From the IMG/VR virus record IMGVR_UViG_3300020148_000032: a stretch of DNA of 64,000 nucleotides. One strand, written 5' to 3'. This document shows positions 923 through 55,602 of this stretch, piece by piece (within the stretch, counting starts at the first letter, position 1; the number at the start of each line of letters is the position of its first letter). The position numbers and the translations under genes are program-made. Below the pieces are notes generated by a model, which saw only the letters and a program-made list of their open reading frames with translations, ran no database searches and had not been told where the DNA came from. The DNA comes from a virus. Lineage: Duplodnaviria; Caudoviricetes.

Positions 923-972
923 TTTTCTAAAAAAGGCCCAGGTGTTTTGCATCCTGAGCCTCTTTTAGAAAA
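923..972. terminator. Hairpin/terminator whose outer arms are inverted TTTAGAAAA motifs
   Basis: ttttctaaaaaaggcccagg...cctgagcctcttttagaaaa; the 923-931 arm also serves as the motif upstream of the ligase. Confidence 0.5.
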
Positions 973-981
973 TATTAAGTT

Positions 982-1287
982 CTATACTGGCCTGTATGCA
1001 TCATTATTTGAAGCCTCTGGTGTGGTAGGATCTTCAAACATGATATAGGACTGATCATCAATTGACCATCCGTTGTTCAAAAGAGCTACAACATTTTTAT
1101 TCCCGTGGTGACCACAAAAGAGCAACTCTGAAGTTTTTTCATTACTGTCTTTAATGGCTCGTACGAGAGCTCTAGAGGCGCACGCATCACAACGATCTTT
1201 CTCTAGAAGAGCGTCAGTCTTAATGAAGAGCTCTCTGTTAAGAGAGTCATGCTTAAGAAGACTTTTCTCTTTAGCTAGTGTATTCAT
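982..1287 (-). CDS. Small Zn-binding protein of a family typical of Actinomycetota
   Basis: DRCDAC...ELLFCGHHG motif. Confidence 0.6.
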   Translation of the reverse strand: MNTLAKEKSLLKHDSLNRELFIKTDALLEKDRCDACASRALVRAIKDSNEKTSELLFCGHHGNKNVVALLNNGWSIDDQSYIMFEDPTTPEASNNDAYRPV

Positions 1288-1335
1288 TGTTCTCCCAATC
1301 TTTAGAGTAAATGCATAATGTATAATATCAAAATT

Positions 1336-2775
1336 TTAAACAGTAAGTCTGAAATCCTTTAAATCATAAACCATGTCAGGTGAGCCCACTGCTTTATATA
1401 GCAATCGCTGAATAATTTGCGTGTCTCCAGGCTTGATTCCCATCCAGAACCAATTCTTCCTCATCATTTCATAGTCTTCATGAGAAGTTCCGTAGTTAAA
1501 GTATGTTTCACCATCAGTGATAACAAGAACATAAGACTTAGTCTTGTTCTCCCGGTCGTAAGTCTTAACGTACTGAAGAACGTTATCGATGTTAGTTCCA
1601 AAGCGACCAGCGATCCTCTTAAGAGTAGGGTCAAAAGGAACAACAGTATCAGACCACGTAATAGCATGAGGGATAATGTACTTGTCAGGAATGTTCATAG
1701 CAATGCTCGAAAGCTCTTCAATCGCATAACGCGGGATTGAGCCACTTACATCAAGTGCAAGAATAAGGTGAGGCGTAGTATCACCCTTACCAATCGGGTT
1801 CGGATTCTCACGGAAAGTAGGGAGAACAATTTCTGGGTAAGAATTTGCCATCTTCCGGCGAGGAGAATGCCACGACTCAACATACTTGCGCTTTCCAATA
1901 GACTTGATCTTCGGGTTAATCTTAGCAAGTAGATCATCCCACTCAAGAGTCACTGCAGTGTGGTTATTGCTGAAGACTGAACTCTTGTTAGGGTTAATGT
2001 TGATAGACACACCATTCGAACCCTTGACAGAATAATCATCGTTCTGTGCAAGAGCATCAAGGATGTCTTCAATAGCTTCAGTCATATCATCATTGTCAAT
2101 GTTTTCTGCAGCTTTATTGACAAGAACCGAAACAAGGTCCTTAAAATCTTGCAAGTTCTCTGAATCAACTCCAGTGACACCTCCGCAAGACTCAAAAATA
2201 GGCAATTCCTGCTGTTGAGAGCCAGAATCGCTAGAACCGTGACCTTCGGAAGAATCATTAGATTCGGAACCTTCTCCAGAGTCAGAACCTGATTCGGAGT
2301 CGTTAGGCATTTCAAGCTTGTCTTCAGTCTGGTCCTTAAGAGACATGATGTAATCATATGCCTGCTTTGTAGAAAAGACTGAGAAGTCAGCGCCATAAAG
2401 TGAAAGACCTGACATTCCACCTTCGGGAAGGTCAAGACCAGTGTTACCGAAGAGACCATCGTTGATAATGCACTCGTGAGCGTGAGTCAGAACCTGAGAA
2501 TCAGGATAGCTTACTCTGTCAGCAGCTTCCGAAAGGTGGTTAAGAACAATGTGATACGTCTCGTGAGCAAAAACAGCGCCAAGCTCGATATCAGACAACT
2601 TCTCAGCAAAATGAGGATTCACTTCGAAATAAATCTTCTTCTCATTGTGAACATATTTTACCTGAGCAGTAGGGATATTCTCGTTTTCAATAGGCTGACC
2701 GATTGATCGCGTTAAGGCGAAGAATGAAGGGCTGATAAAGGCGATTGCCTCTAGTCCGCGCTTGAAGTCATTCAT
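1336..2775 (-). CDS. DUF2201-type metallopeptidase + VWA-like domain protein (MoxR partner)
   Basis: HETYH (HExxH), acidic Ser/Gly linker, DVSGS MIDAS, GT, VITDG. Confidence 0.85.
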   Translation of the reverse strand: MNDFKRGLEAIAFISPSFFALTRSIGQPIENENIPTAQVKYVHNEKKIYFEVNPHFAEKLSDIELGAVFAHETYHIVLNHLSEAADRVSYPDSQVLTHAHECIINDGLFGNTGLDLPEGGMSGLSLYGADFSVFSTKQAYDYIMSLKDQTEDKLEMPNDSESGSDSGEGSESNDSSEGHGSSDSGSQQQELPIFESCGGVTGVDSENLQDFKDLVSVLVNKAAENIDNDDMTEAIEDILDALAQNDDYSVKGSNGVSININPNKSSVFSNNHTAVTLEWDDLLAKINPKIKSIGKRKYVESWHSPRRKMANSYPEIVLPTFRENPNPIGKGDTTPHLILALDVSGSIPRYAIEELSSIAMNIPDKYIIPHAITWSDTVVPFDPTLKRIAGRFGTNIDNVLQYVKTYDRENKTKSYVLVITDGETYFNYGTSHEDYEMMRKNWFWMGIKPGDTQIIQRLLYKAVGSPDMVYDLKDFRLTV

Positions 2776-2821
2776 GTCTTTTACCCCTTGTTAGAATGTT
2801 TGAATTAATAGTATCACAGGT

Positions 2822-3892
2822 TTACGCGAGAGTAAAACCCTTAAGGCGCATTTCGTAACGAAGTTCACCCTTCTTGTAAGTGGTCCAACCCATCATAAGA
2901 GTGTTGACCTGTACGTCAGTGAAGTTCTGAAGGATTTCACCCCAGTTTTCAGCAATACGTGCAGGGCCAACACCCTTCGAAAGTGCATTAGCAAGAGCAG
3001 TGTTAAGTCGGTTAATCTCATCATTAGTGAGGTTCCCATCCTTGTAGATTGCTCGAAGAGCAAGGATATTCTTGCTGCTCCTAAGAAGCTCGTTGGGCAT
3101 GTTGACGAACTCGTTAACAGTTAGCCTAGACTTGCTATTCTTTGAGTTTGCGCGAACGTCAGCTGGAGTAAATGCTTCAGCGAGAAGGCGAGTCCACTGG
3201 TCGAGAGAAATAATTGCACCAGGGGTAAGAGTATCACGCAGGGTCTCCTTCTTAGGGATTGCCTGGAATGCGGATACCATCATATCCATACGACGCGGAG
3301 AAAGATAAACAGCCTTCTTAGCAACATTGTTCTTTACGGCGTTCTTATAGCTGTTGTTGTACTCTTCCCAGAGAGACTTTACGACTCGAGCCACATCGGT
3401 ACCGTACTTCTTCGAGAAGTAGCCAGCATCAATCGAAGGGGTAGAGTCGAGGAACACATCGAATCGGTCAAGAAGTGCAGGGTCGATATCATCGACAGTG
3501 TAAGAACCATCGTTAGGGTTGATAGCTGCAGCGACTGCCTTAAGGTTAGGGAGAGGCTCACCGTTAATAGTTCCAAACTGGATGATCTCGAAAAGAGTAT
3601 TCCGAGTCCTGTCATCTGCTCGGTTGAACTCGTCCATGATAACAATTTCTGCCTCATCGAGGTCACGAGGGCGGTAGAACTCTACGGTCTTGGTCTCCTT
3701 ATTAGGAACTGGGATACCCACAAGATCAGTGTAAGGGTCAAGGGTGGCGGTGGAGTAATACTTCACCTTGTACCCAAGCTGGTTTGCAGCTTCAGTAAGG
3801 ATAGCAGTCTTACCAGTACCGAGAGGGCCAGAAATGAGAATGTTGAGTCCATTGCTCATGTAGTTCTTCACGTTGTTTACATTGATAGCCAT
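2822..3892 (-). CDS. MoxR-like AAA+ ATPase
   Basis: Walker A GPLGTGKT, Walker B IVIMDEFNRA, AINP, DPALLDRF, SPR; adjacent to VWA gene. Confidence 0.88.
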   Translation of the reverse strand: MAINVNNVKNYMSNGLNILISGPLGTGKTAILTEAANQLGYKVKYYSTATLDPYTDLVGIPVPNKETKTVEFYRPRDLDEAEIVIMDEFNRADDRTRNTLFEIIQFGTINGEPLPNLKAVAAAINPNDGSYTVDDIDPALLDRFDVFLDSTPSIDAGYFSKKYGTDVARVVKSLWEEYNNSYKNAVKNNVAKKAVYLSPRRMDMMVSAFQAIPKKETLRDTLTPGAIISLDQWTRLLAEAFTPADVRANSKNSKSRLTVNEFVNMPNELLRSSKNILALRAIYKDGNLTNDEINRLNTALANALSKGVGPARIAENWGEILQNFTDVQVNTLMMGWTTYKKGELRYEMRLKGFTLA

Positions 3893-4028: not shown

Positions 4029-4646
4029 ATGGCTTTTATTTCTCTTGAGACTTTATTGAAAGAATATAAACCTGCGTATCCAGAAAATGGAACATGGAAT
4101 GACACGATTAAAGGAATTCTCGATTCTCCCTATGATAATGAGATAGTCACTCTTCTTATGGAAGATTTACAAATGTCAGAATATTTTAGGGAACCAATTG
4201 CTCTCACTCCAGATGAAGATGTTGATGAATATGGATCTTTTGTTTGCAATGGAACGCATCGCGTAGTCGCTCATATCCTTTCCGGCTCGAAAACTGTTTT
4301 TGTTCAATACGGATTTCCAGATATTGACGAGGAGGAATCTATAGAAACCACTGAGATTCTTATTGGATTCAGTAAAAAAGATTTAGAAGAAAGATACTCT
4401 CACGATGATGCTCTTTTTGAATTATTTGACATTATTTTTACCATCTCTCGTTCTTTAAAAATCTCTGACACTCTTTGGATTGAGAGTAATTTTATGAGTG
4501 AGAACTCTGACTCTTTCTATATTTCTTATCCACGATTATCTCCAGAAGTAACTTTCGATGTAATCCGGAAGATTTATGACACTCTTGCGAAGGAAACAGA
4601 CCTTTCGTTCAGTATTTCTTCTAAAAACGAAGTTCTTGATTTTTAA
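4029..4646 (+). CDS. ParB/sulfiredoxin-like N-terminal domain protein
   Basis: FREPI...VCNGTHRVVA resembles the ParB DGxHR motif. Confidence 0.55.
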   Translation: MAFISLETLLKEYKPAYPENGTWNDTIKGILDSPYDNEIVTLLMEDLQMSEYFREPIALTPDEDVDEYGSFVCNGTHRVVAHILSGSKTVFVQYGFPDIDEEESIETTEILIGFSKKDLEERYSHDDALFELFDIIFTISRSLKISDTLWIESNFMSENSDSFYISYPRLSPEVTFDVIRKIYDTLAKETDLSFSISSKNEVLDF

Positions 4647-6013
4647 TCAAAGGAGAAGAAATTATAAGGGAATTTCATCCAACTAAACTTTGATAATGCT
4701 GGGTGACGCATGAATGTAGAGCTTGATGTTTCAGTTTCAACATAAGAGCTATTAGCTTTGACGTTCTTGTAATTCATTTGACCATCAGTGAAACGAGTCC
4801 TTAATTTTAAGAAAGAAACGGACTTTGAGTCTTTGTTATGGATAGGAATAATGAGCCCATCAGTTCTTTTAGAAACAAAGATCGGCTTTAAAGCAATTCT
4901 CTCATCGTTGACAAACTCTTCAATAGTTGGGATTCTACCTTTTGTAATTTCATTTTTAGAATGATTGACATAATACGCTGGAGTATTTCTTAACCCCATA
5001 AGCCTTGCAATGAATTCTCTTTTTTGAATACTATCGGAGGCTTCAAATTTTTCTTTCCAAATTGAATTAACCGCCACTTGACGTTTCTTTGAAAGTTGTA
5101 TGTATTCTGGGTCATTCCCAATTTCTGCCCAATTCTTTGTAATATATTTTGAAAGAGTCTTTTGAGCAAAAGGAGTAGCTTTCCAAGTGTGAATATTTTT
5201 AAGATCAACAAGTGGGATATCGTAAGAAGTTCCAGAGAATTGATAAGTTGCTATAGTGTTAAGATCATTAACTTTTAACTTTCCAGAAGCAATGTCAGAT
5301 TCTATTCTTGAGCGATAATATGCAAGTATTTCATTATCAATCGACTCGACTCTCTCGTCATTATAAAGATTAAAATTTTCAAGGCCTAGAGCTTCACCGA
5401 CTTTTGCGACTGAACCATTGTGTAATATGTTTGATTCCGACTTGATACTTACTGGGTAATCTTTTCCATTAACAGTAATTCCAATGTCACCTACTGTACC
5501 GTCAGTTCCATGCGTACTCTCTTTTGCCATCCACCTAAGATTCTCGATAATTTCTTTATCATTGAGGCCTTCGTGTTTGAAAATTGAATATGACACTTGA
5601 GCAATTTGAACAGCTGATTGTATCTTCTCGTCCTCTTTCTTATCATTAGAGAGTTTTGCTGCAAGAACTAACAATTCTTCATAATTTTTAGTGCTTTTAG
5701 GTAAAGAGGTAATAATATGAATAAGATCGTCTTTAGTCTTCACTTGATTAATGTCTTTACCTCTTGCAAGAGCAATAACAAGAGCCTGTGAACCTGCTTC
5801 AGTAATCTCAGTATTGCGGGCGGTGCTCCCGCCGAATGAATGAGTATTTGAAAGAACGCGCACTTTTTCTTGGGATTCTACGTTTGATTCATACGCATCT
5901 CTGGCTTCTTCTTTAGTTGAATAATGTTCAAATTTATCTCCGAAAGGGCACGCTTTTTTAGCATGACAAACACCTGGGTTGCCAGTTTTTGGATTAATGT
6001 GATATGCAGACAT
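4643..6013 (-). CDS. HCCH-tagged PD-(D/E)xK restriction-endonuclease-like protein
   Basis: Tag YHINPKTGNPGVCHAKKACPFGDKFEHY; GTVGDIGI...VSIK resembles HaeIII-type REase active site. Confidence 0.55.
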   Translation of the reverse strand: MSAYHINPKTGNPGVCHAKKACPFGDKFEHYSTKEEARDAYESNVESQEKVRVLSNTHSFGGSTARNTEITEAGSQALVIALARGKDINQVKTKDDLIHIITSLPKSTKNYEELLVLAAKLSNDKKEDEKIQSAVQIAQVSYSIFKHEGLNDKEIIENLRWMAKESTHGTDGTVGDIGITVNGKDYPVSIKSESNILHNGSVAKVGEALGLENFNLYNDERVESIDNEILAYYRSRIESDIASGKLKVNDLNTIATYQFSGTSYDIPLVDLKNIHTWKATPFAQKTLSKYITKNWAEIGNDPEYIQLSKKRQVAVNSIWKEKFEASDSIQKREFIARLMGLRNTPAYYVNHSKNEITKGRIPTIEEFVNDERIALKPIFVSKRTDGLIIPIHNKDSKSVSFLKLRTRFTDGQMNYKNVKANSSYVETETSSSTFMRHPALSKFSWMKFPYNFFSFD

Positions 6014-6035: not shown

Positions 6036-6044
6036 TTTTCTAAA
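6036..6044 (-). promoter_or_regulatory. TTTAGAAAA tagged-gene promoter motif
   Basis: 23 nt upstream of ATG, followed by AAGGAG RBS. Confidence 0.65.
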
Positions 6045-6901: not shown

Positions 6902-7738
6902 TTAGTATTTAACATTAAACTTTTCTTCAAGTTCTTTCCAACTTTTCTCAGGAATGTTAACTTCTGCATAATGACCACCCCAAGGGTAATCAGTATTCTT
7001 TAGAACATACTTCATCATTTCATAATAATTCTCTTTGAACGTTTTGCGTGTTTCAAAATCGTTTCTGAGAGTAATAAACTTTGGATCGGCTTTTATTTGT
7101 TCATCAGTTTTACGTTCTTTCTTTAATTTTCGAGTATAATCTCTTAATTCTTCCTCTGCTTTATATGCTTGAGTAAGAGCAATATCTCTAGAGTCTTTAA
7201 ATTCTACATTAACGTAGAAGTTTCTATCAAAATAATCAAATTGTGATTCACTTCTATCATAATTGAAAGAGTTAGCGATAAGTGTCACTTTATCTCTAAT
7301 TACTGAAACTTCTGAGTTAATATTTACAGCAGAGCCACTTAAGTCTTTAGTTTCGTCAGGGTGTGCATTAGATTCAATAATAATACTAATAGCTTGGTGA
7401 CTAGTCTTTCGGACTTTAAAACGGAGACCTTTAGGTAAATAATTCCCTTGTACGGCTTTCTTTAATTCTTCACGAATTGAAGCGGCGATTTGGGTAGTCG
7501 AAAGTTTTTGATCATAATTTGATCCTCGCCAACCATTTCCATATGGAGCTTCAATAGTTTCTCCGTCACCAACAGTATATGTTACTTCATTAAAAGAGTC
7601 AGACTTTGCTTCATATGCTGCTCGTGCTTCTGATTTTGATTCGTAATGCTCTTCAGAAGAGCCAAAAGGGCACCTGCCCTTCTCAGCATGACAGATGCCT
7701 GGATTGCCAGTCTTAGGATTAATGTGATAAGTAGACAT
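6902..7738 (-). CDS. HCCH-tagged LPD29-like (polyvalent-protein-associated) domain protein
   Basis: Start at MSTYH after AAGGAG; GSNYD..LSTTQIAASIREELK...FKVR...YDRSESQFDYFDRNFY. Confidence 0.7.
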   Translation of the reverse strand: MSTYHINPKTGNPGICHAEKGRCPFGSSEEHYESKSEARAAYEAKSDSFNEVTYTVGDGETIEAPYGNGWRGSNYDQKLSTTQIAASIREELKKAVQGNYLPKGLRFKVRKTSHQAISIIIESNAHPDETKDLSGSAVNINSEVSVIRDKVTLIANSFNYDRSESQFDYFDRNFYVNVEFKDSRDIALTQAYKAEEELRDYTRKLKKERKTDEQIKADPKFITLRNDFETRKTFKENYYEMMKYVLKNTDYPWGGHYAEVNIPEKSWKELEEKFNVKY

Positions 7739-7760
7739 GAAAAACTCCTTCAATATAAAG

Positions 7761-7837
7761 TTTTTCTAAATAGTTCTTTACTTATTTTCTTCTAATTCTA
7801 GAATAATTTTATTTCCCACAGAATAAGAACCCTTGAT
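7761..7837 (+). repeat. 77-bp exact direct repeat, copy 1
   Basis: Identical to 9507-9583; contains the TTTAGAAAA motif (7762-7770, minus) and the codons for QGFLFCGK-stop. Confidence 0.95.
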
Positions 7838-7949
7838 ATGCTTCTTCTAAAGTAGAATAGTGTTCTTCAAGAGATCCAAAAGGGCAGCGACCATGAGTTG
7901 CACGACAAAGGTCGGCATTTCCACTTTTTGGATTGATATGATATGTCAT
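7809..7949 (-). CDS. Stand-alone HCCH tag peptide (46 aa) or truncated tagged gene
   Basis: MTYHINPKSGNADLCRATHGRCPFGSLEEHYSTLEEAYQGFLFCGK; motif at 7972-7980. Confidence 0.7.
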   Translation of the reverse strand: MTYHINPKSGNADLCRATHGRCPFGSLEEHYSTLEEAYQGFLFCGK

Positions 7950-8110
7950 AACGGCCACCTTTATCCATAAGTTTTCTAAAAGGCTTTTAAATAAAGTTTG
8001 CTTTTTATTCTCATTCATATTAAAATAAATTCAAAAACAAAGAGATTTAATGCATCATCTACATGCTAAAAATAGGTGCTCGAGCACGCGAAAGTTTAGA
8101 AAGATATTGT

Positions 8111-8497
8111 ATGAAGTATCATATTAATTCTCGTGGTGATGTAAAACCATGTAGCGCGGCTAAAGGTAAATGTCCCTTTGGTGGACAAGAGAATCATTAT
8201 CTTAATAAGGCTTTAGCTCTTAAAGCTGTTGAAGACAAGTATGAAGCTTTTTCAATAGTTCCAGATACTCAATCTTCTGTGATATCATACATTTATACCC
8301 AATATTGCATTGAGAATAAACGTCTTCATAATTCTATCAATATTGGAGACCCTGCAGAGTTATTTTATTATTCATCTGCTCAAGGTAGACTAGAATTAGA
8401 AAGAAGATTATCTTATCGTAAAGATGATAAGAGATATCATTTCCATTTCAGATTTATAAAGAAGATCCAAGTTTTGGAGACATTGTTTTTGAAGTGA
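8111..8497 (+). CDS. HCCH-tagged hypothetical protein (possibly leaderless)
   Basis: MKYHINSRGDVKPCSAAKGKCPFGGQENHY; TTTAGAAAG ends at 8103, 8 nt before the ATG. Confidence 0.75.
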   Translation: MKYHINSRGDVKPCSAAKGKCPFGGQENHYLNKALALKAVEDKYEAFSIVPDTQSSVISYIYTQYCIENKRLHNSINIGDPAELFYYSSAQGRLELERRLSYRKDDKRYHFHFRFIKKIQVLETLFLK

Positions 8498-8688
8498 GAA
8501 TTATGATTCTTGATGATATGTGGAATTATGTTCTCTTTGATGAAGAAATAGGGTTTGATGTAATTCAAAAAATAGAAGATCTTGCTCATCTTGCTACTGT
8601 TAACAAACTTAACAGAAGTTTTGATGATTACTTTTATTCTCATAATCTTGAAAGAGCTTTTATAGAAAAGATCAAGAATTTTATTTAA
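8494..8688 (+). CDS. Hypothetical protein
   Basis: GTGA overlap with upstream stop. Confidence 0.5.
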   Translation: MRIMILDDMWNYVLFDEEIGFDVIQKIEDLAHLATVNKLNRSFDDYFYSHNLERAFIEKIKNFI

Positions 8689-8725
8689 TTCTTTTTAGAA
8701 AAGACTTTATACAGAGGAGTTTTTT

Positions 8726-9490
8726 ATGTCTAAATACCATGTTAATCCAGAAACAGGTAATCCTGGAGTATGTAAAGCAACTACTGGAAATTGTCCATTC
8801 GGTAGTGATGATCTTCATTTTAATACTAAATGGGAAGCCAGAATTTCCTATGAGCAATCACAGAGAGATGAAATTCTCAAAAAAATTTATGTATCAGATG
8901 AAGATAAAGTAAGTCTTTTGACAAGAACTCATTCTGATTATAAGAAAGAGCTCAATGATATGAGGGAAAGTGGAATTCTACCTAAAAATGTAAAGATAAG
9001 ATCTTATATTGTGTCATGGACACACGATGTTTATACTAGAATCAGTGTTCCAAAAGAAAACTTTTCTGATTTTTATGAATTCCCCTCTGTATATAAAATC
9101 TCTCAAAAATATAATGAGATAAACGATTCTCTTAAAGATTTAGATCAAAAGTATCATGAAAAGTTTAGTTCTGTAAGTATTGGAAAGACTTTTGTTTATT
9201 CTTATTTTACAAGCCCTCTAGAAGATATTGAAAATGGAGAATATAGAGAAAGAACAAAGCTTAACAGAGAAATACAAAAACTTAAAGATTCTGGGCTTGA
9301 TGATTTTTCTATTAATAATCTGGACAAAATCAAAGAACTTAAAGCTAGTTATTCAAAGAAAAATTTAACTCTCTTAAAAGTCAAGAAAATGCAAGAATAT
9401 ATGTGGAAAAATAAAGATAAGGTACTCCCTGAAAAGAATTGGGAAGAATTACTTACACGTTTTGATCTTAAAGATGATCTTATGAAGTAA
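8726..9490 (+). CDS. HCCH-tagged protein, paralog of 6902..7738
   Basis: Tag YHVNPETGNPGVCKATTGNCPFG; GILPKNVKIR vs NYLPKGLRFK; LPEKNWEELLTRF vs IPEKSWKELEEKF; motif 8694-8702. Confidence 0.8.
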   Translation: MSKYHVNPETGNPGVCKATTGNCPFGSDDLHFNTKWEARISYEQSQRDEILKKIYVSDEDKVSLLTRTHSDYKKELNDMRESGILPKNVKIRSYIVSWTHDVYTRISVPKENFSDFYEFPSVYKISQKYNEINDSLKDLDQKYHEKFSSVSIGKTFVYSYFTSPLEDIENGEYRERTKLNREIQKLKDSGLDDFSINNLDKIKELKASYSKKNLTLLKVKKMQEYMWKNKDKVLPEKNWEELLTRFDLKDDLMK

Positions 9491-9506
9491 TTCTTTTTAG
9501 AAAAGT

Positions 9507-9583
9507 TTTTTCTAAATAGTTCTTTACTTATTTTCTTCTAATTCTAGAATAATTTTATTTCCCACAGAATAAGAACCCTTGAT
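9507..9583 (+). repeat. 77-bp exact direct repeat, copy 2
   Basis: Identical to 7761-7837 (offset 1746). Confidence 0.95.
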
Positions 9584-9851
9584 CTGTAGAATAATAGTAC
9601 AATTCTATTGGAGAACCAACTAATGTACCATTATGCATAATATTGTTTATATATACAATATTGTGAGTATTTTAAAGAAACTTCAGACGATTCTATATCA
9701 GGGTCTCTCGTGAAAGTATCATGAGTTAACTCAAAAACTTTTCAGAATCTCTCTTGTTTTCAAAATGAAATTCTGAACCTCCAAAAGGGCAAGGTTTCTT
9801 TACTGCTTGACATTTACCTATTTGTTGAGTCTCTTCATTAAAGTGATACAT
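9555..9851 (-). pseudogene. Frameshifted HCCH-tagged paralog of 8111..8497
   Basis: MYHFNEETQQIGKCQAVKKPCPFGGSEFHFENKRDSEKF / ELTHDTFTRDPDIESSEVSLKYSQYCI / NNIMHNGTLVGSPIELYYYSTDQG read in successive shifted frames; aligns to PDTQSSVISYIYTQYCIENKRLHNSINIGDPAELFYYSSAQG. Confidence 0.8.
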
Positions 9852-9853
9852 TC

Positions 9854-10741
9854 TTACTCCTCAATATGAGAAATCAACGCATCATATTCAGACCAGAAAA
9901 CAAATTTGGCAGTCCTCTCTCCGTTAAAATACGCCTCAATATTAATTTTTCCTTGGTCAATATCATCAATAAATGTGTGCAGATTGTGACTAACCATAGT
10001 TAAATCTGTATATCGCACTTTTGTTTGTCCGCGATCTTCTTTAATGTCATAATGAGCAATAGCGATATGCTCGTATTTCTCTTTTATTCTATTATTTATT
10101 TGATCAAAAGTCCAATAAAAATCTTGAGTGTTAGTGAGATTGCTCCCGTCTTTATCAGCTACAATCATTCGTAATTTCTGGTGTTTATAGTCAACAAATA
10201 AAGCAAACCGATGATTTCCAATAGTTTGCCAACTTTGTGTACTCATTGATTTTCTTACATAACCTTTACCAATAAGAGCTTTGAATTTATTTTTATTTAT
10301 AAGTGAGAGTGAACCCAGAGTAACATTATTTCCTCTTCCCGATGATCTATGTGTTTTTAATTCCACTTGACCGAGGTCCGCTGAAGCTTTAGAATCTTTC
10401 TTTAAACCAAAGAGTTCTTCAAGTTTTAATCCAGGGGTTCCTTTATTTTCATCATAACCTTTAAGGGTAAAGAATTTTCCTTTAATGTCTTTTTCGAATT
10501 TGTCTTTTACCTGTTGTGGAGTACTTGCAAGGGAGTTATCTTTTGCGTTGTAAGAAGAATCACTTTTCCCTTCTTTCTTTACGAAAGTTTTTATTTCGGA
10601 AGTTTTATATTGGTTTTCTATATGTTGGTAGGCTGCCGACATAGAATCGAAATGAGATTCGGCGTTTCCATATGGACATGTCTTTTTAACTGCATGACAC
10701 GCGCTAGGAACAAGTGTTTCAGGATTAATGTGATATAGCAT
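9854..10741 (-). CDS. HCCH-tagged MvaI/BcnI-family endonuclease
   Basis: Tag; GTPGLKLEELFGL..D...ADLGQVELKTHR...VTL; motif 10764-10772. Confidence 0.75.
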   Translation of the reverse strand: MLYHINPETLVPSACHAVKKTCPYGNAESHFDSMSAAYQHIENQYKTSEIKTFVKKEGKSDSSYNAKDNSLASTPQQVKDKFEKDIKGKFFTLKGYDENKGTPGLKLEELFGLKKDSKASADLGQVELKTHRSSGRGNNVTLGSLSLINKNKFKALIGKGYVRKSMSTQSWQTIGNHRFALFVDYKHQKLRMIVADKDGSNLTNTQDFYWTFDQINNRIKEKYEHIAIAHYDIKEDRGQTKVRYTDLTMVSHNLHTFIDDIDQGKINIEAYFNGERTAKFVFWSEYDALISHIEE

Positions 10742-10782
10742 TCAAACCTCTCTTTACTAAATCTTTTCTAAAAAGCGAGGTT

Positions 10783-15758: not shown

Positions 15759-16724
15759 CTAGATAAGAGTAATTTTTTCTTTCACATATTCTGGGTAGTC
15801 TTCCCATATTACTCCAGACGTATCAAACGCTACAAGTTTACCGTTCTTATCTATACCATAATTATTAAAATGATCATCATGGCCAGAAAGATTCATCTTT
15901 AATAATTCTTTAGAAGATAATCTCTCGCTATGCCTCATTTTTAATGATTCTTGAGCAACAAAACCGTAATCGCCTAAATTATAATAAGATTCTTTAACAT
16001 AGCGAATGTTTTTACTTTTCGGGAAGGCTTCTTTAGAAAGTATTGCTTGATGTATGTACTCTTCCGAACTCACATCATCAAATAAAGACGTTTTCCAAAT
16101 AAGATCTTTACTCGGTTGATAAAAGACAACTTGCTCTTTACCTGAATTAATAAGTATAAACCCATTTTCTTCAAAAGCATTATTATGTTCGTGTTCTCTT
16201 AAAAGATCTTTAAGGTCTAATTCTTTAATAGTCTTTGATAAGAGTTTAGCATCATCAATAGTTGACTTTAAACTCTTGTCTTCAAGCAAGAATTTTTGAT
16301 TGATTGGAGCTCTGTTAAGCTCTTTCTTGTATTCATATTGTAATTTCTTCATGTATTCTTCCCAAAATTCTTGCTTGTCTGGAAAGGAAGAAATAGTGTG
16401 AATAATGTCTCTATTATAGGACTCTAAATCCTGTTCATCAATCTGCATTTCAAGTTCTTGCTGAACGAATTGTCTTATCTTTTTCATAATAGTTCGGTGA
16501 AGTAGCGGCACATCATCTTCAGTCGCTACCCTCACCTCACTACTTATTGATAACATTTCATGAGCAAATTTTTTAGAATGAGATTCTATCTTTTCATGAA
16601 GATTAGTAATGAATTCTTTCGCTTCCTCTTTAGTTTGGAAATGATTTTCGTCTCCACCAAAGCGACATTTATTTTTTGCTGAGCATTTAAGAATTCGCTC
16701 TTCATGATTAACGTGAAATTTCAT
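15759..16724 (-). CDS. HCCH-tagged protein-kinase-like domain protein
   Basis: Tag FHVNHEERILKCSAKNKCRFGGDENHF; INSGKEQVVF..LIWK, DDHFNNYG...AFD. Confidence 0.6.
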   Translation of the reverse strand: MKFHVNHEERILKCSAKNKCRFGGDENHFQTKEEAKEFITNLHEKIESHSKKFAHEMLSISSEVRVATEDDVPLLHRTIMKKIRQFVQQELEMQIDEQDLESYNRDIIHTISSFPDKQEFWEEYMKKLQYEYKKELNRAPINQKFLLEDKSLKSTIDDAKLLSKTIKELDLKDLLREHEHNNAFEENGFILINSGKEQVVFYQPSKDLIWKTSLFDDVSSEEYIHQAILSKEAFPKSKNIRYVKESYYNLGDYGFVAQESLKMRHSERLSSKELLKMNLSGHDDHFNNYGIDKNGKLVAFDTSGVIWEDYPEYVKEKITLI

Positions 16725-16765
16725 TCTAAACCTTTTAATTCAACATTGTTATCTATGTTTCTATA

Positions 16766-17299: not shown

Positions 17300-17344
17300 T
17301 TTAACCTCTTTCTTTAAAGTTGATTTCAACAAGTAGATTAGAGT

Positions 17345-17887: not shown

Positions 17888-17921
17888 CCCTCTTATCGAA
17901 ATATGACATTATTATATCAAT

Positions 17922-18719: not shown

Positions 18720-18821
18720 GACTTATACCCCTTTAGTGTATGATAAAAACTTTTCTAAATCATTCTTCCGAAAGGTATGAAATAATATCCTTATTAGAAG
18801 AGCTTGTTAATCCTCCTCATT

Positions 18822-20835: not shown

Positions 20836-20873
20836 AGAAACTCCTTCGATATGAACTTATCTAACTTATTGGG

Positions 20874-21748: not shown

Positions 21749-21805
21749 TGCAAATACTCCAAAAATAAGATTTAAAGTAATTTCTAACCAAAAATGATAA
21801 CAACT

Positions 21806-23407: not shown

Positions 23408-23442
23408 AGAAATAATCCTTAGTTATGTTGTTTTCACTTTTT

Positions 23443-24306
23443 CTAACGATTTTTAGAAAGTTTACGTTCAGATTCGAGAACTAATTCTTCTAACTGTTTA
23501 ACAGCCCCATGGTTAAAATCTTTAGGATTTAATTGATAAAGGTTATCAAAACCCTCAAGTCTTTTTATTAAGAACTCGTGGTAGAAGTTTTCATAATCTT
23601 TTTTGCGAATAAATGGGTAATGAGTGCTATAAATAGCAAGAACGATTGATTGAATGATTGCAAAAAACGCACCTTCCGCCTCATCAGATATTTCATAGAT
23701 ATCATCAGTGTCAAACTCATCATTAATTCTTGCAAGTGGGTTCTGAACAAGTCCAGTCTGAACTAAATTTGTATGGTGTGCAATATATAATTCCATTACT
23801 AGCTTTTGAAGTACATATTTTTGTAAGGGAAGCATGCGCTTTGATTTAAGAGTAAGGTTAAATTTTCTTGTTTCTCCATAAGAGTAAAAAGAACGCATAG
23901 AATATGGAGCTATTTGCTGAAAGCCTCCTAAAACAAGTGCGACAGAATTATCCCTCTCATCGTACATTTCTCCAATTTCTCTATCAACATCTTTACAAGT
24001 TTGAAGGAATTCTGGGGTCATTTCACCTTCAAGTTCTACATTAATGTTCTTTAAGTCAAGACTTTCAACAAAGACTGGAGCTTTTCCATCCTTCTCTCTA
24101 AAATAACCATTCTTTTGAGGAGCAAAATCTGCAAGTAACTCTAAGGTTTCAGGAGTATTTAATTCTGCTGACCATTGTTCAAAGTTATTTAAGTTAGACT
24201 TCTTTATTTTTGGATACTTAAAATATTGGTATGCGCTAAAGAACCCTAACACAATAATTCCCAAAGCAGTTATATATGAGAGAAGTAAACCCAATCCATC
24301 GTCCAT
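23443..24306 (-). CDS. Membrane-anchored hypothetical protein
   Basis: N-terminal hydrophobic helix. Confidence 0.6.
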   Translation of the reverse strand: MDDGLGLLLSYITALGIIVLGFFSAYQYFKYPKIKKSNLNNFEQWSAELNTPETLELLADFAPQKNGYFREKDGKAPVFVESLDLKNINVELEGEMTPEFLQTCKDVDREIGEMYDERDNSVALVLGGFQQIAPYSMRSFYSYGETRKFNLTLKSKRMLPLQKYVLQKLVMELYIAHHTNLVQTGLVQNPLARINDEFDTDDIYEISDEAEGAFFAIIQSIVLAIYSTHYPFIRKKDYENFYHEFLIKRLEGFDNLYQLNPKDFNHGAVKQLEELVLESERKLSKNR

Positions 24307-27116: not shown

Positions 27117-27165
27117 TATTTCACCTTCTTTTAAAGAACCAATATACAGTTTTTTCTAAAACACT

Positions 27166-28875: not shown

Positions 28876-28899
28876 GAGTTTCCTTTTTTAACCTTCTCT

Positions 28900-28965
28900 A
28901 AAAAGAATTAGACGCGAGGCCCCTTGGAGGATAGCGATAAGGAAGAACGTTGGGGCCCCGCGTAT
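28900..28965 (-). ncRNA. Candidate small RNA: 12-bp GC stem with C/U-rich loop
   Basis: Minus strand ACGCGGGGCCCC-(28-nt loop with CUUCCUU, CCUCC)-GGGGCCUCGCGU then U-tract; TATAAT just upstream. Confidence 0.4.
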
Positions 28966-36816: not shown

Positions 36817-36883
36817 AAAACCTCCAATGTTTATATCTTATCACCTAATTCTCTTAAAAGAAATACTTTATAGATACTTTTTT

Positions 36884-37006
36884 ATGAAAACTTATCATGT
36901 TAATCCAGAAGCTGGGAAAATAGATATTGTTCCATATGATAAACAAAATATTGAAATAAGGGGTTGGTTACCGCATTATAAAGACATGACTTTTGTTGAA
37001 AGTTGA
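36884..37006 (+). CDS. Degenerate stand-alone tag peptide lacking cysteines (40 aa)
   Basis: MKTYHVNPEAGKIDIVPYDKQNIEIRGWLPHYKDMTFVES; TATAGATAC ends at 36877, 7 nt before the ATG. Confidence 0.5.
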   Translation: MKTYHVNPEAGKIDIVPYDKQNIEIRGWLPHYKDMTFVES

Positions 37007-38387: not shown

Positions 38388-38756
38388 TATGAACCCCTTT
38401 TAATTTTATTTACCTATCTAAAAAGAATCTAGAAGAGAGACCGCTCCTAGTAATATAAGTAGTTAAGTAGTATTGTTACTTTATAAACTATTTATAAAGA
38501 ATTTAAAAAACAAGCTTATAAATAGTACCATGCTAAGTAAAGTCAAAAACAAGTTTTTAGGCTTTTTAGGTTTTTGTGGAGCAAGAAGATTTGAAAATAC
38601 TAAGTAAGTTTTATTATTATTGGTAGTTTATTTTAGACTGCAGTCTTAGAAAGGAAAAGTCAGAGGTATGTCGTTCATCATAACTGCACTAAAGTTCTGT
38701 TAGAAAGCAGCTTAGAGTTAGTAGCCGTACAATTTAGACACACTCCTACAAAACGG

Positions 38757-40766: not shown

Positions 40767-41771
40767 CTAAACGTTTTCAATATTTTCTAAATCGGGGAAT
40801 CTCTTTCGTGTAAAATGACGAACTAGATTAGTTATTAAATCGGCAAAATCTTCATCAAGGTCGAAATAGTCAATTTCCTCATCTTGATAACCACTGTTAT
40901 CATAAATGGGGTACTTCACTTTTTCGCCAATACTTAATAAATAATAATTTACAATTACGGCTCTATCTTCAGCGGACGACCACAAGTTAAAATAATCAAT
41001 AGAATTAGAAATTAATTCTGGCTCAAATTCATGTGAAAGATATCCCGGTAAATCAGACTCCTTCTCAGAATCTAACAAGAATGATAATAATTCTTTATCC
41101 TCATAAAGAGAATTAGAATATAAAATATCAATATAATTCCAAATTTTTATAAACAATTCATTATTTTTAAGAATTGAATATTTTTTAGGAATATTCAACT
41201 TTTTTAATCGATCAAAATAAAAAACTTTAGTATCAATAGAATCAAGTTTTTCCTTTATAACCCTTGACTCTTCATTAAGTAAATCGTACCACTCTGGAAT
41301 ATATTTCTTACTTCTCGGGTACTTTTTAAAATGATGTAACAATGATGCTCTTTTTGGGAAAATGTTAGGAACATCATCATTGTCTTTCCACTGATCTTCA
41401 AGTATATTAAAACGTCTCATCCGGTTAATACTTATAGAGAAACTATTCCTCTTTTGAGAGTAATAAAGAGTGAAGTGAAGAAAAGATCCAATTTCTTCAA
41501 GGTAAAATGCTTCTTCAAGATCAAGAATTACTTCATGACTAATTTCTTCAATACAACGGTTTACTAAATCTGGGTGAGTTTTACTTTTCCCAGAGATAAT
41601 AACCCCGCCAATTGTAGTAAAAAAGAATGTAACTTCAGAATTCTTTACATTTTTAAAATGATGAAGTATAGATTCTTCTATACGTTCTAATGCTCGCGCT
41701 ATTTTAGGTGAAGCTATATAATAACCTTCAACTACATCGTCATGAAGTTCTGTTCTAATAATATTTTCCAT
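40767..41771 (-). CDS. Immunity-like protein, diverged paralog with C-terminal extension
   Basis: LEEAFY...GSFL...KYPRSKKYIPEWY. Confidence 0.5.
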   Translation of the reverse strand: MENIIRTELHDDVVEGYYIASPKIARALERIEESILHHFKNVKNSEVTFFFTTIGGVIISGKSKTHPDLVNRCIEEISHEVILDLEEAFYLEEIGSFLHFTLYYSQKRNSFSISINRMRRFNILEDQWKDNDDVPNIFPKRASLLHHFKKYPRSKKYIPEWYDLLNEESRVIKEKLDSIDTKVFYFDRLKKLNIPKKYSILKNNELFIKIWNYIDILYSNSLYEDKELLSFLLDSEKESDLPGYLSHEFEPELISNSIDYFNLWSSAEDRAVIVNYYLLSIGEKVKYPIYDNSGYQDEEIDYFDLDEDFADLITNLVRHFTRKRFPDLENIENV

Positions 41772-52006: not shown

Positions 52007-53293
52007 TTAATCTTTTACGTAGCCTTCTACAGCTTTTGGACGTTGACCTTTAGGAGCTTCGCGTAATCTTTCAGCGAAACCATAAAGAGCTTTAAATGTC
52101 ATAATGGCGTCAGGCAAAGCGCTGTGCGCGTCCTCATAAGGAATACCATTTGCTTCACTGAAGCTCTCTAATCTGTTATTCTTACCCTCATCAAAAAGAA
52201 TGGTTGAAATAACACGAGTATCACTCCAGGAAACAATAGGTGACATTTCATTCTTGTGGCGTGAAGAAATATTCAAACCAGAAAAGACTTCACTCTTTTG
52301 CCAGAAACCATTGAGGTGTTGTGAGAGGTAGGACTTTTCAAAAGCATCATTATGTGCAACGTTGATGGAATCTGGATCATTAAGGAATTTCCCCACAGTT
52401 TCTTGAACTTTAGGGTCATTGAATTTTCTTTTCCCTACTACGTCTTGAGGTCTAATTTTGTGAACTGCGGTGGCTCCCACTCCGATAACATCTCTTACTT
52501 CAGAATTATTAATGTCAAATCTTTCTTCATATTCTTCAAGAATTTCTCCGCTAGGTGAAACCTTGACGATACCGATCTCAATAATTTCGCCCATGTTAGG
52601 GTCAAGTGATGTTGTTTCAAGGTCAACGAATACTCTATTCTTTTTCCAAGTAGTGGGTCCACCTTGTTGGAATAATGAAACAATGTATTCATCTTTAGTC
52701 ATTCCAGATTCTTCGTTATAATTGTAATAGAGTTCTTCAGCATCTTTACGAGAAATCTCATTCCAAGAAGCTAATTGATTAATGGTAGCGTCTTCCATTT
52801 CTGGGCTAATTTCTTCATTAAAATTCACATTAAGACGCATTGTTGCTCTATAAGCCTTTTGTGCTCTCTTGCTAGCATAAGTTTTTGGAGGGCTTGGATA
52901 TTTATCATCAGCATCAAGTAAACCCATTTCTTTAGCATAGTGTCGCGCGAGCCTCATATTGTGATAATCAACTCTTTGCTTTTCATAGATTTCTCTTAAT
53001 TCATCATGAAGATCATCAATGACTTGAGGGTCAACCATACCTAGAAGAGCAGACACTTTTAATTCTTCAAGTTGGTTCTCACGAGGGTCAGAATCATTTG
53101 CTACAGATGTTTCAAATGCGTCTCTATACTTCTCAATATTGTCAAGAATCGTTTTCGCTTTTTCAGAGTATTTGTTTTGCGCCTCTTCCTTACTAGAGTA
53201 ATGATCTGTTTCTAAATCTCCAAAAGGGCATGTTTTCTTAGCGCGACAAATACCTGGGTTACCCGTTTTAGGGTTAATGTGAAATCTTTTCAT
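52007..53293 (-). CDS. HCCH-tagged DEDDh 3'-5' exonuclease (DnaQ-like)
   Basis: Tag FHINPKTGNPGICRAKKTCPFGDLETDHY; VDLETT, AHNDAFE, HSALPDA; motif 53350-53358. Confidence 0.85.
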   Translation of the reverse strand: MKRFHINPKTGNPGICRAKKTCPFGDLETDHYSSKEEAQNKYSEKAKTILDNIEKYRDAFETSVANDSDPRENQLEELKVSALLGMVDPQVIDDLHDELREIYEKQRVDYHNMRLARHYAKEMGLLDADDKYPSPPKTYASKRAQKAYRATMRLNVNFNEEISPEMEDATINQLASWNEISRKDAEELYYNYNEESGMTKDEYIVSLFQQGGPTTWKKNRVFVDLETTSLDPNMGEIIEIGIVKVSPSGEILEEYEERFDINNSEVRDVIGVGATAVHKIRPQDVVGKRKFNDPKVQETVGKFLNDPDSINVAHNDAFEKSYLSQHLNGFWQKSEVFSGLNISSRHKNEMSPIVSWSDTRVISTILFDEGKNNRLESFSEANGIPYEDAHSALPDAIMTFKALYGFAERLREAPKGQRPKAVEGYVKD

Positions 53294-53363
53294 GAAAGTT
53301 AAACTCCAATAAGCGAATTTGAATAATATCGTGATTGTGTAATGAATCCTTTTCTAAAGAGAA

Positions 53364-53411: not shown

Positions 53412-53837
53412 TCAGAGGAGAGTATCCTTTGAAAGATCCTTAATAACTTCAGGATCATATACCTTCGAAACCTCGCCCGAGGCTTCGAAAACTAGACGGC
53501 TAGCGTAAAGTCGCTTTGACTTCTTTGCCTGCGCCACCTCGAAAAATGTGTCTCCTACCTGGTGCATTCCGATGAGTGACTTGTCACCTTCGGAAGGGAC
53601 AACACCCTCCTTGAGGGGGAAAGTGTTCAAGCGAGAAATGAAGATACTTGCAACAGCTGCATCGAAACGATTAGCCGTCCAGATTGCTCGCATGGTATCA
53701 ACAAACAGTTCGGGAACCTGACGCTCACGAATGAGAGTAGTAATGAACGCTTCTTGATTAGGAGTCACGGGTGTAAGCTTTCGTGCCTCGGTGTTAGCAA
53801 TTTGAGAAACGGTAGTCATGTTAATCCTTAGGTTCAA
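53412..53837 (-). CDS. Hypothetical phage protein
   Basis: TPNQEAFITTL; TTGACT-17-TAGAAT promoter at 53847-53875. Confidence 0.6.
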   Translation of the reverse strand: MNLRINMTTVSQIANTEARKLTPVTPNQEAFITTLIRERQVPELFVDTMRAIWTANRFDAAVASIFISRLNTFPLKEGVVPSEGDKSLIGMHQVGDTFFEVAQAKKSKRLYASRLVFEASGEVSKVYDPEVIKDLSKDTLL

Positions 53838-53878
53838 GTTAAGATTATTCTATATTTGATTTTTCTAAAAGTCAATAT

Positions 53879-54331
53879 TTAGAAAGTCCAAATTTCGATA
53901 GTGATTTCTGGGTAATGCTCGGCCTGAGTATCAATAATATTACGCACCAAGTCCCAATCAAGACCACCAATTCCCGCTCCAATGCGGGGGAGTGCAAGAG
54001 AGACGATTCCATTCTCACGCAAATAGGCGAGAGTGTTTGCAAGAGAGCTGTCAAGCCACTGGTAACTTGCATTGGGACCTGGGAGATCCTGTGTTGCCAT
54101 GTTCATGATAAGGGTTCCGTCAGAAGCCATGACGGGAAGAACCGTACCGGGGGTAAGAAGCCCTTCATCACAAGCCTTCTTGTAAGGTGCAAAGACTTCT
54201 GGATAAAGAGAGCGAAGGGTCTTAGCAATTCCTCTTCCCATTACTCCCTTTACATTGACTCCATGCCCGTAAGCTTCAGCGTGTGAGGTGAAAAGATCAC
54301 CATTCTTCTCAATAATGTTTGTAGGTGACAT
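53879..54331 (-). CDS. Macro domain (ADP-ribose hydrolase, Poa1p/DarG-like)
   Basis: GDLF, HGVNVKGVMGRGIA, LPRIGAGIGGLDW; TTGACA-17-TAGAAT at 54357-54385. Confidence 0.88.
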   Translation of the reverse strand: MSPTNIIEKNGDLFTSHAEAYGHGVNVKGVMGRGIAKTLRSLYPEVFAPYKKACDEGLLTPGTVLPVMASDGTLIMNMATQDLPGPNASYQWLDSSLANTLAYLRENGIVSLALPRIGAGIGGLDWDLVRNIIDTQAEHYPEITIEIWTF

Positions 54332-54503
54332 GATACTCTCCTTAAAGTATATTTTCATTCTATCATTATGTGAGAAGAATGTCAATTAGTCGTGTCAATA
54401 CTTTCACAATCATAGTAATCAGTAGCCGTATTGTCACTCTTTATACACATGAGTGAGTTTTCTCTGTTTGGTACTTTTATGTATTGAAGATAGAAAACGC
54501 GAA

Positions 54504-55382
54504 TTAGTGTCGTGCCGTTATAGCCATTGAAACAACTTTAATCATTTCCCCTAATGCTTCGTAAGAGCTACTTTCGAGATCTTCCTGAGCTTTCAAGTTC
54601 TCTAAACGTTCTTTTTCGACCTCTAGATCTTCAATGTCATATGTGGAAATTCTCTCTACTAACTCTTCAGCGTTGCGTGGATTTCCATAATATTTAGGGA
54701 GGGGTTTTAGCTCTTTAGCGTATCCAGCTATTTGAATAAGTGAGTAATATTCTTCAACTACTTCTGACCATCCAGATTCGCTACAGCGATCATATGCTGA
54801 CAAGAAAATAAGATTCTTTGTTTCTTCTGATAGTCCACGATTAGCATTTGGGAATGATTCTTCAAGAACTTTTTGACCATCATTTTGATTCATCTTGGGT
54901 TGCTTTCGGAATGCGTAGAATGCTCCTGTTAAGCCATGACTCTTTGTTTCATCAGTATCTATTGATTCTAAAGAATGAGTTCTTACTGATTCAATAATCT
55001 TTGCATAGGGAATCATCTCTGTTAGCAAGATTTGTGGCGATGAAACTCCTGCTTTGTTAATTGCTTCCCTGTAAATAATCTTGCAGAGTTCATCATCTAC
55101 ATCACTGAGAGAGTATGGGAAAGCTTCTTTAATAATTTGAGGAAAGTTGTCTTCTCTAATATTTTTCTTACCTTCGAGTTTGTCCATAGTTTTATAGAAT
55201 GGGATATCTGTTTCTGTTTTACGCGAAAGGGTGGGTAAACCATGTAATTGCGAGAGGGTTTCTTCGATTGCTTTAATGGCTTCTTCTTTAGAGTCATAAT
55301 GTGTTGAATGTATGGGACATTCTTTCTTTTCAGCATTGCAAACTCTCGGAAACCCGTCAGCTGGTGAGATATGATAGCGCAT
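54504..55382 (-). CDS. HCCH-tagged protein with internally duplicated ~55-aa helical domain
   Basis: MRYHISPADGFPRVCNAEKKECPIHSTHYDSKEEA after GAGGAG RBS. Confidence 0.75.
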   Translation of the reverse strand: MRYHISPADGFPRVCNAEKKECPIHSTHYDSKEEAIKAIEETLSQLHGLPTLSRKTETDIPFYKTMDKLEGKKNIREDNFPQIIKEAFPYSLSDVDDELCKIIYREAINKAGVSSPQILLTEMIPYAKIIESVRTHSLESIDTDETKSHGLTGAFYAFRKQPKMNQNDGQKVLEESFPNANRGLSEETKNLIFLSAYDRCSESGWSEVVEEYYSLIQIAGYAKELKPLPKYYGNPRNAEELVERISTYDIEDLEVEKERLENLKAQEDLESSSYEALGEMIKVVSMAITARH

Positions 55383-55602
55383 AGTGTTCTCCTCTACAAA
55401 AAGCGATAGAAACCTATTAAACTTTAACAAGCCCTTTTAGGTTTCTATTGCCTTTTAATAAAAATCTTTAATTGTGTATTATTTGGAGTAAGATTTTTTG
55501 TTATTTAATGTGTAACTTCATTAACATGTTAAGAACAAGTCTGTTCCCTTAAAGTGTTAATTTTGATGAAGATGACAATTTACATTAAATCAATTTTAAT
55601 GT

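Follow-up and report, generated by a model that had tools for sequence, protein, structure and literature searches.

A seven-base TTAGAnA box as a probable alternative promoter of a tagged gene family in giant extrachromosomal elements

Single-box promoters and the element under study

The late promoters of phage T4 have the sequence TATAAATA and are read by gp55 together with gp33 and the gp45 clamp. In the leaderless housekeeping promoters of Actinobacteria the sequence TAnnnT lies about 6-7 nt before the start codon, and in the hrp-box/HrpL regulons of type III effectors many unrelated proteins carry one N-terminal module and are served by one dedicated promoter. Here we describe a seven-base box, TTAGAnA, that is linked to a family of genes with a common N-terminal tag in a 64 kb stretch of DNA (the window, ~35% GC), which is part of a ~437-kb contig (436,884 bases; IMG/VR record IMGVR_UViG_3300020148_000032). 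The box is probably the element's own promoter, by which the tagged family would be switched on together.

Further systems bear on this comparison. The late promoters of phage SPO1 (gp34/gp33) are quoted as CGTTAGA-N17-19-GATATT (PMC3601020). SigN (ZpdN), encoded by plasmid pBS32 of Bacillus subtilis, is a plasmid-borne sigma factor with a private regulon, and its promoters consist of a -35 TTTACGTTT and a -10 (T)AGATA(T/A)AA, followed by N7 and then +1 (PMC6751061). The oral 'Inocles' are giant elements that resemble plasmids, with ~395 kb and 32% GC, and encode VirB4/VirD4, DNA polymerase III, gyrase, sortase and a sigma factor annotated as RpoS; the paper on them contains no promoter analysis (PMC12340149). 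The window resembles this description and is a possible member of the Inocle family.

Giant extrachromosomal elements of 0.4-0.8 Mb are newly recognised and ~95% of their genes are without known function, and a seven-base signal that marks one large class of those genes is a direct handle on the regulation of such elements. The class so marked includes nucleases, RNA-repair enzymes and other conflict-type proteins, all with an uncatalogued tag. It delimits a regulon recognisable from sequence alone, predicts exact transcription starts, guides the search for a cognate factor and offers a simple reporter of the time and place at which tagged proteins are produced; should that factor be encoded by the element, these elements would govern some of their own transcription in the manner of phages.

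The box and the tagged genes in the window and its relatives

The molecule that carries the window is a giant uncultured plasmid- or phage-like element; megablast of the window against cultured phages gave no match, and a 41-mer taken from it had no exact match in IMG/VR. Within the window 21 genes open with a common N-terminal module of ~45 residues, with the consensus [YF]H[IV]N..G.P..C.A....CPFG....H[YF] (His-Cys-Cys-His), which is joined to unrelated domains, among them an MvaI/BcnI-like nuclease, an RNase T-like exonuclease and LPD29. The module matches no Pfam family. A profile search of metagenomes with the tag returned 5,351 cluster representatives, whilst a search of IMG/VR with the tag peptide returned nothing, tblastn with the tagged proteins gave no credible match in cultured phages and no match in the PLSDB plasmids, and the sole match to the tag in a word-indexed protein search was the query itself.

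Exact TTTAGAAAA occurs 17 times in the window as against 4.97 +/- 1.97 times in dinucleotide shuffles, none of which reached 17. A sequence-only reading of the window had proposed that the tagged genes share a dedicated promoter-like motif and had placed nine exact copies ahead of them; all nine are present, pointing towards the gene and lying 19-59 nt before the tagged starts at 891, 6013, 7738, 7949, 8726, 10741, 18719, 27116 and 53293. The variants that it listed are likewise where it had put them, with GTTAGAAAA belonging to the start at 23407, GTTAGAAAT to 21748, GTTAGATAA to 20835, TTTAGAGAA to 28875, TTTAGATAG to 38387, TTTAGAAAG to 8111, TATAGAAAC to 16724, AATAGAAAC to 55382 and TATAGATAC to 36884, and the three tagged genes without a box (9851, 17887 and 22712) each follow another tagged gene, the gaps being 2, 34 and -1 nt. 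When the spacing is counted from the last base of the 7-mer, the starts group at 22-24 and 32 nt before the ATG.

The enrichment expected over an AT-matched background is borne out. In upstream sets of 70.7% AT (tagged) and 69.3% AT (untagged), TTAGA[AGT]A precedes 14 of the 21 tagged genes compared with 2 of 66 untagged genes (p = 2e-9), with the reverse complement as a control giving one tagged and one untagged gene. Counted up to 62 nt before the start, a box is present at 16 of 21 tagged compared with 5 of 66 untagged genes of equal AT content (p = 2e-9). In the AT-rich intergenic DNA of the window the degenerate 7-mer is itself only ~2-fold enriched (21 copies versus 11.5 +/- 3.3 in shuffles); the signal lies in its orientation, its position and its link to the tag: 14 of those 21 intergenic copies are aimed at a tagged start. 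Within the window conservation stops at the core (T)TTAGAAA(A) and does not reach the flanks.

Untagged genes of the window often have a textbook TTGACA-N17-TATAAT promoter, many with a TGn extended -10. Promoters of the sigma70/extended -10 type that score at least 10 are found at 15 of 66 untagged genes versus two of 21 tagged genes, one of the two being the box-less gene at 17887; a simple sigma70/terminator scanner did not discriminate. No consistent -35 accompanies the box, none being conserved, as the sequence-only reading had observed, and its proposal of a dedicated, non-sigma70 element of the -10 type is supported, the box being largely separate from the promoters of the untagged genes. 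This contrast within one window suggests that host-type promoters serve one set of genes and the box serves the tagged set. Near-consensus TTGACA-N17-TATAAT, mostly with TGn, precedes the untagged starts at 6114, 15691, 19610, 25659, 35195, 37064, 54331, 55773, 56998 and 62519; this TTGACA/TGnTATAAT style is a Gram-positive one and hints at the host.

The tag also gave access to 86 loci of related uncultured elements that range from 31 to 64% GC. Six of these come from species genomes, four of the six being short contigs of one metagenome-assembled genome (MAG), and 78 come from metagenomes, with many of them on contigs of 0.2-0.73 Mb; an 828-kb contig of the Joint Genome Institute (L003, 56% GC) and a 79-kb contig (L006, 64% GC) that has a MoxR-DUF2201 neighbourhood in common with the window are part of the collection. 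A hidden Markov model of the tag identified 202 non-redundant tagged genes outside the window, and a simple call of open reading frames (ORFs) supplied 389 untagged neighbours. TTAGA[AGT]A lies no more than 45 nt upstream of 90 of the 202 tagged genes compared with 6 of the 389 untagged ones (p = 1.5e-41), and its reverse complement is found at 6 tagged and 5 untagged genes. Among the six boxed genes that count as untagged, one has a diverged tag and one is a MoxR-like gene. An unbiased comparison of k-mers puts GTTAGA at the top (66 vs 4, 1e-29) and TTAGAAA next (52 vs 4), and box and tag remain linked in each of the four GC classes between 0.28 and 0.70. The observation is genuine and has very strong statistical support, most of all in these relatives.

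Alignment of the 90 sites gives the logo [G>A>T, never C]TTAGA[A>T>G]A, without information from -30 to -2 as counted from the box. In the window the box is found as CTTTTTAGAAAAG, with palindromic flanks that are gone in the GC-rich relatives, so that neither a hairpin nor a dyad operator is what is conserved. Homologous genes on different contigs were paired for footprinting without conditioning on the presence of a box; both members have it in 9 pairs, neither in 16, and just 2 pairs are discordant. Four homologous pairs keep the box though the remaining upstream DNA is just 28-52% identical, which is the level of random sequence.

Spacing, the predicted start site and competing explanations

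The distance from box to start codon is bimodal, with a sharp peak at 7 nt and a broad class at 17-42 nt. The short class (6-9 nt) comprises 19 sites, 15 of them at exactly 7 nt and 2 at 8 nt, and none of the 19 has a Shine-Dalgarno (SD) site, whereas all 85 sites at 17-45 nt do. In the window the two SD-less starts near a box are 36884 (at 7 nt) and 8111 (at 8 nt), as had been noticed from the sequence-only reading; a fixed short distance to an SD-less start is the general mark of leaderless promoters, and the mRNAs of these genes are, as was then proposed, probably leaderless. Where the gene is SD-led, a purine occupies the eighth position past the box in 71 of 85 sites (p = 3e-9), behind a stretch that is pyrimidine-rich and nearly free of G; such a pattern is typical of start sites and is in register with the leaderless ATG. 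In the short class this eighth base is the A of the ATG, so that both classes point to one start, with the box at about -14 to -8. The earlier expectation that transcription begins some 7-8 nt past the box would thus hold in an indirect way, through the split in SD usage and the purine peak at box end + 8.

The distribution of box-less genes is consistent with a signal of this kind. Of the tagged genes without a box 46 of 97 lie within 25 nt behind an ORF on the same strand, compared with 12 of 127 boxed ones (p = 1e-10); box-less genes are hence largely internal to operons, as expected of a signal that is required only where a transcription unit begins. A strong terminator hairpin stands directly ahead of some 10 boxes (932-963 in the window, several in L003 and L006).

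From these features a mechanism can be proposed in which [G/A/T]TTAGA[A/T/G]A would be the core, and apparently the sole conserved part, of a private promoter class of giant extrachromosomal elements. The box would serve as an element of the -10 type that spans about -14 to -8, with transcription beginning at the eighth base after it; where this base is the A of an ATG a leaderless mRNA would result, and otherwise a leader of 15-40 nt with an SD site. The reader would be an alternative sigma-like protein encoded by the element, or less probably an RNA polymerase of its own, and would turn on the His-Cys-Cys-His-tagged genes as one regulon. That the reader is most likely element-encoded follows from the lack of a -35, from an invariant final A in place of the T at -7 and from the persistence of the box across 31-64% GC. 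We regard the box as marking an alternative-promoter regulon that is real and takes a new form; that it serves as a promoter is well supported, by indirect evidence.

Amongst described systems the T4 late promoters are the closest in architecture: they too comprise a single box, of ~8 bp, in the -10 region with no -35, and have short leaders, a specialised reader and a large co-regulated class of genes, and a single -10-region box without a -35 is what is found here. TAGAAA is one base off the TATAAA of T4. The sequence nevertheless differs, the box being TTAGAnA with an invariant G, the element is not T4-like, and neither TATAAATA nor genes for gp55, gp33 or a sliding clamp were found, the latter among the ~60 window proteins compared with Pfam. 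The sequence-only reading had inferred a phage late-type regulon for synthesis at assembly time and had suggested looking for an encoded sigma factor or RNA polymerase. Late timing has no support here; the ~60 proteins include no virion protein, sigma factor or RNA polymerase subunit, and the tag is absent from the cultured phages, IMG/VR and PLSDB as searched above, so that this part of the earlier proposal is not supported.

The heptamer CGTTAGA of SPO1 is a frequent form of the box in the relatives, where it is found in 19 tagged versus 1 untagged upstream regions, but in SPO1 it is a -35 paired with GATATT. A bipartite reading on this model was rejected: GATATT (at least 5 of 6 bases) follows 17-19 nt downstream in none of the 85 SD-led sites, and since the box ends 7 nt before the leaderless ATGs it cannot be a -35 as in SPO1. 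With the -10 of SigN the box has the letters TAGA(T/A)A in common; however, the -35 TTTACGTTT is required there and absent here, and the TAGA of SigN is more distant from +1, by 3 nt, than the register predicted for the box would have it. The SigN combination, that is TTTACGTTT together with AGATA(T/A)AA and a sigma factor of the SigN family, was not found in the window or the related loci. Actinobacterial leaderless promoters have the same -10-only look and the same fixed short distance to an SD-less start, yet the box ends in A rather than T, is confined to one gene family and also serves SD-bearing leaders. The logic of module plus promoter is that of the hrp-box/HrpL regulons. TTAGAnA is unlike the boxes CCGCCTACA and CCGCACA of the proposed promoter-plus-tag modules of other giant plasmids, and the tags differ too. 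A search of the literature for the motif gave only primer matches and an unrelated repeat of phage K.

Plasmid pBS32 itself (L130/L131, NZ_CP020103; 84 kb) encodes gyrase A/B, a PHP-type polymerase, ribonucleotide reductase with an NrdI-like flavodoxin, thioredoxins and tdk, and also RusA, DNA ligase, a PQ-loop protein, an AAA ATPase and its own sigma factor. This is a striking set of functions to have in common with the present element family, and pBS32 may be its small cultured cousin in lifestyle.

The most durable of the alternatives, which we nonetheless consider improbable, is that the box is an operator for an activator or repressor encoded by the element and merely modulates weak promoters used by a host sigma factor. 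The palindromic flanks of the window version would suit this, and a short site shared by a whole regulon is what a dedicated regulator would use. Across lineages, however, just the asymmetric TTAGAnA (7-8 bp) is kept; dyad or direct-repeat symmetry and a variable position beside a separate core promoter, as expected of an operator, were not seen. The box instead keeps to one orientation strictly, neither a -10 (TAnnnT or TATAAT) nor a -35 is conserved alongside it, and the 7 nt between box and ATG in the leaderless class leave no room for a separate -10.

It would seem very unlikely that the box acts in RNA, as a 5'-leader element that affects how the transcript is processed, how stable it is or how it is translated (a translational regulator might bind there, for instance, or the box might stand in for the SD site), with the true promoters further upstream. 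The box is always on the sense strand and close to the start codon, and in SD-less genes a constant 7 nt separates it from the ATG, which is about the place of an SD site. Against this, no conserved or sigma70-like promoter is found upstream of the boxes, several boxes start right after a terminator and so leave no room for one, the purine peak in SD-led genes has no obvious reason at the level of RNA, and the window has no Rfam match at gathering thresholds. The absence of boxes from operon-internal tagged genes also fits a transcription signal better than a per-gene signal for translation.

That the housekeeping sigma factor of the host reads the box as an unusual -10, with no factor of the element being needed, has an equally small chance of being correct. 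The opening T and A of TAGAnA match the TA of TATAAT and TAnnnT, and the spacing to the leaderless start is like that of Actinobacteria. The simplest reading is nonetheless that this sigma is not the reader, given the lack of a -35, the final A and the reservation of the box for one gene family. A TTGACA-like -35 placed 16-18 nt ahead of the -10 was not found and sigma70 scores upstream of tagged genes are low; the hexamer is TAGAnA and not TATAAT or TAnnnT, its final A is invariant where a T is needed at -7, and the next base has no preference for T. Canonical TTGACA/TGnTATAAT promoters meanwhile serve other genes of the same window, and untagged neighbours are almost never boxed. Least credible of all is a functionless box, either a hitch-hiker with a duplicated module of upstream region and tag or a mark of recombination junctions between cassettes, since, for all that the tagged genes are paralogues and two duplicated segments end exactly at boxes in 9488-9516 and leave orphan boxes there, the flanks of the box are unconserved even within the window, the box persists where upstream identity is at the random level and GC differs by 30 points, and a neutral process would not yield the rules of SD and distance or the purine at +1.

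Several points do weigh against a promoter read by a factor of the element. Taken over all boxes, the enrichment of hairpins upstream is not significant (p = 0.075), and about half of the tagged genes in the relatives have no strict box, operon position accounting for only half of those. The tagged genes being paralogues, some copies, such as those at 9488-9586, owe their box to duplication and not to independent selection. The start position is deduced from the letters of the DNA alone. No sigma factor or RNA polymerase was recognised by Pfam among the ~60 window proteins, a walk along ~40 kb of the syntenic 79-kb contig (L006) met no gene for either, and tblastn with SigN over the window and ~570 kb of related loci produced one spurious match (E = 0.016). 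A word-indexed search with SigN found only plasmids and phages of Bacillaceae of 80-100 kb. In the MAG that holds related contigs there are matches to Sigma70_r2, which were rejected as candidates, as they lie on host-like contigs of 56-64% GC or in an unrelated locus of 31% GC for an extracytoplasmic function (ECF) sigma factor.

A broader version of the promoter reading is conceivable, albeit doubtful. Box and N-terminal His-Cys-Cys-His tag might together form a portable front end that makes any gene a member of one co-expressed set, perhaps with co-delivery of the products; the reader might then be a new class of sigma factor or the elements' own polymerase, and the set might fire as a unit at one moment, for example on transfer into, or establishment in, a new cell. 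Transcription machinery that the element carries with it would let the same seven bases work at 31-64% GC, and hence probably in hosts from more than one phylum.

Boxes along the window and neighbouring genes

The first box of the window, TTAGAAA at 924..930 on the minus strand, lies 32 nt before the ATG of the tagged gene 1-891 and directly behind a terminator hairpin (about 932-963), with a predicted +1 at 916 (A). Three further TTAGAAA boxes on the minus strand precede SD-led ORFs: 6037..6043, 23 nt before the tagged gene 4643-6013 (predicted +1 at 6029, G), 7763..7769, 24 nt before the tagged gene 6902-7738, and 7973..7979, 23 nt before the tag-only ORF 7809-7949. On the plus strand TTAGAAA at 8096..8102 is of the leaderless type, with 8 nt between it and the SD-less ATG of the tagged gene 8111-8497, and TTAGAAA at 8695..8701 stands 24 nt before the tagged gene 8726-9490 (predicted +1 at 8709, A). 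The tagged gene for the MvaI/BcnI-like nuclease (9854-10741, minus strand) has TTAGAAA 23 nt ahead of it at 10765..10771 and is followed in one unit by the tag-only fragment 9729-9851, also on the minus strand.

The boxes between 16 and 29 kb are all on the minus strand. Two variants precede the tagged gene 15759-16724, ATAGAAA (16758..16764, 33 nt before it) and ATAGATA (16750-16756). TTAGAAA at 18752..18758 is 32 nt before the tagged gene 17922-18719, and the box-less tagged gene 34 nt behind the latter (17345-17887) has an extended -10 of its own, TGATATAAT. TTAGATA (20858..20864) is 22 nt before the tagged gene 19660-20835, and TTAGAAA lies 32 nt before each of the tagged genes 21374-21748 (box at 21781..21787) and 22712-23407 (box at 23440..23446); the end of the latter is overlapped by the box-less, operon-internal tagged gene 22197-22712. 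Further along are TTAGAAA at 27153..27159, 36 nt before the tagged gene 25710-27116, and TTAGAGA at 28895..28901, 19 nt before the tagged gene 28090-28875. For the other SD-led boxes with a TTAGA core the rule of box end + 8 predicts starts at 7965, 10757, 18744, 20850, 21773, 23432, 27145, 28887 and 38407.

In the remainder of the window the variant ATAGATA (36870..36876, plus strand) ends exactly 7 nt before the SD-less ATG of the tag-only ORF 36884-37006, which is of the leaderless type with the A of the ATG as its predicted +1. The other boxes of tagged genes here are on the minus strand: TTAGATA (38415..38421) 27 nt before 37875-38387, TTAGAAA (53351..53357) 57 nt before the gene for the RNase T-like exonuclease (52007-53293), and the weak variant ATAGAAA (55442..55448) 59 nt before 54504-55382.

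Boxes are also found outside the tagged set. TTAGAAA at 40784..40790 on the minus strand lies within the 3' end of the upstream gene and 28 nt before an untagged YezG-like gene (40267-40755), which is a possible member of the regulon. AATAGAGA at 58479-58485 on the plus strand is exactly 7 nt before the SD-less ATG at 58493 of an untagged gene for a small membrane protein (107 aa), and this gene may be a leaderless member of the regulon without a tag. A box-like TTAGAAA at 53862..53868 (minus strand) precedes the untagged gene 53412-53819; it falls within the 17-nt spacer of a good sigma70-type promoter, TTGACT-N17-TAGAAT, and is for this reason probably non-functional as a box.

Two orphan boxes stand back to back within 9488..9516, at 9497-9503 (plus strand) and 9509-9515 (minus strand), with no gene start behind them. 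They are copies of the promoter regions of 8726 and 7738 and lie as orphan promoters behind the gene 8726-9490. The duplicated segments, of 98 nt (91% identity) and 23 nt (91%), link 9488-9586 with 7743-7840 and 8686-8708 and meet exactly at the back-to-back boxes (TTTAGAAAAG and TTTTTTCTAAA), which suggests that recombination at the box, or close to it, reshuffles modules of promoter and tag.

Three mini-ORFs of 40-46 aa consist of the tag without a cargo domain (9729-9851 and 7809-7949 on the minus strand, 36884-37006 on the plus strand), and two of the three have a box of their own; they may be cassettes in decay, spare front ends or free-standing small tag proteins. At 982-3892 on the minus strand the window has a trio of genes for a MoxR-like AAA ATPase, a DUF2201_N protein (VWA-type metallopeptidase-like) and a small DUF7455 protein. 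On L006 MoxR, DUF2201_N and an unscanned gene of 101 aa follow one another at 16306-19524 (64% GC) in the same order as in the window, and on locus L042 a MoxR-like gene at 7596-8708 has a box 9 nt before its SD-less ATG. A search of IMG/VR with the MoxR profile gave generic AAA matches only.

A cultured isolate, Nocardioides sp. Root140 (L011, contig_13), has two adjacent tagged genes, neither of them boxed; where the cognate element is absent, the promoter seems to be absent too. The strain is a possible experimental entry point for work on the tag. Tagged genes are also present on at least 7 metagenome contigs of 0.47-0.83 Mb with 33-59% GC (L016, L033, L059, L074, L081 and others), which are either giant elements, in an unusually rich set, or cells with small genomes; five of these contigs come from one sample series, Ga0308157.

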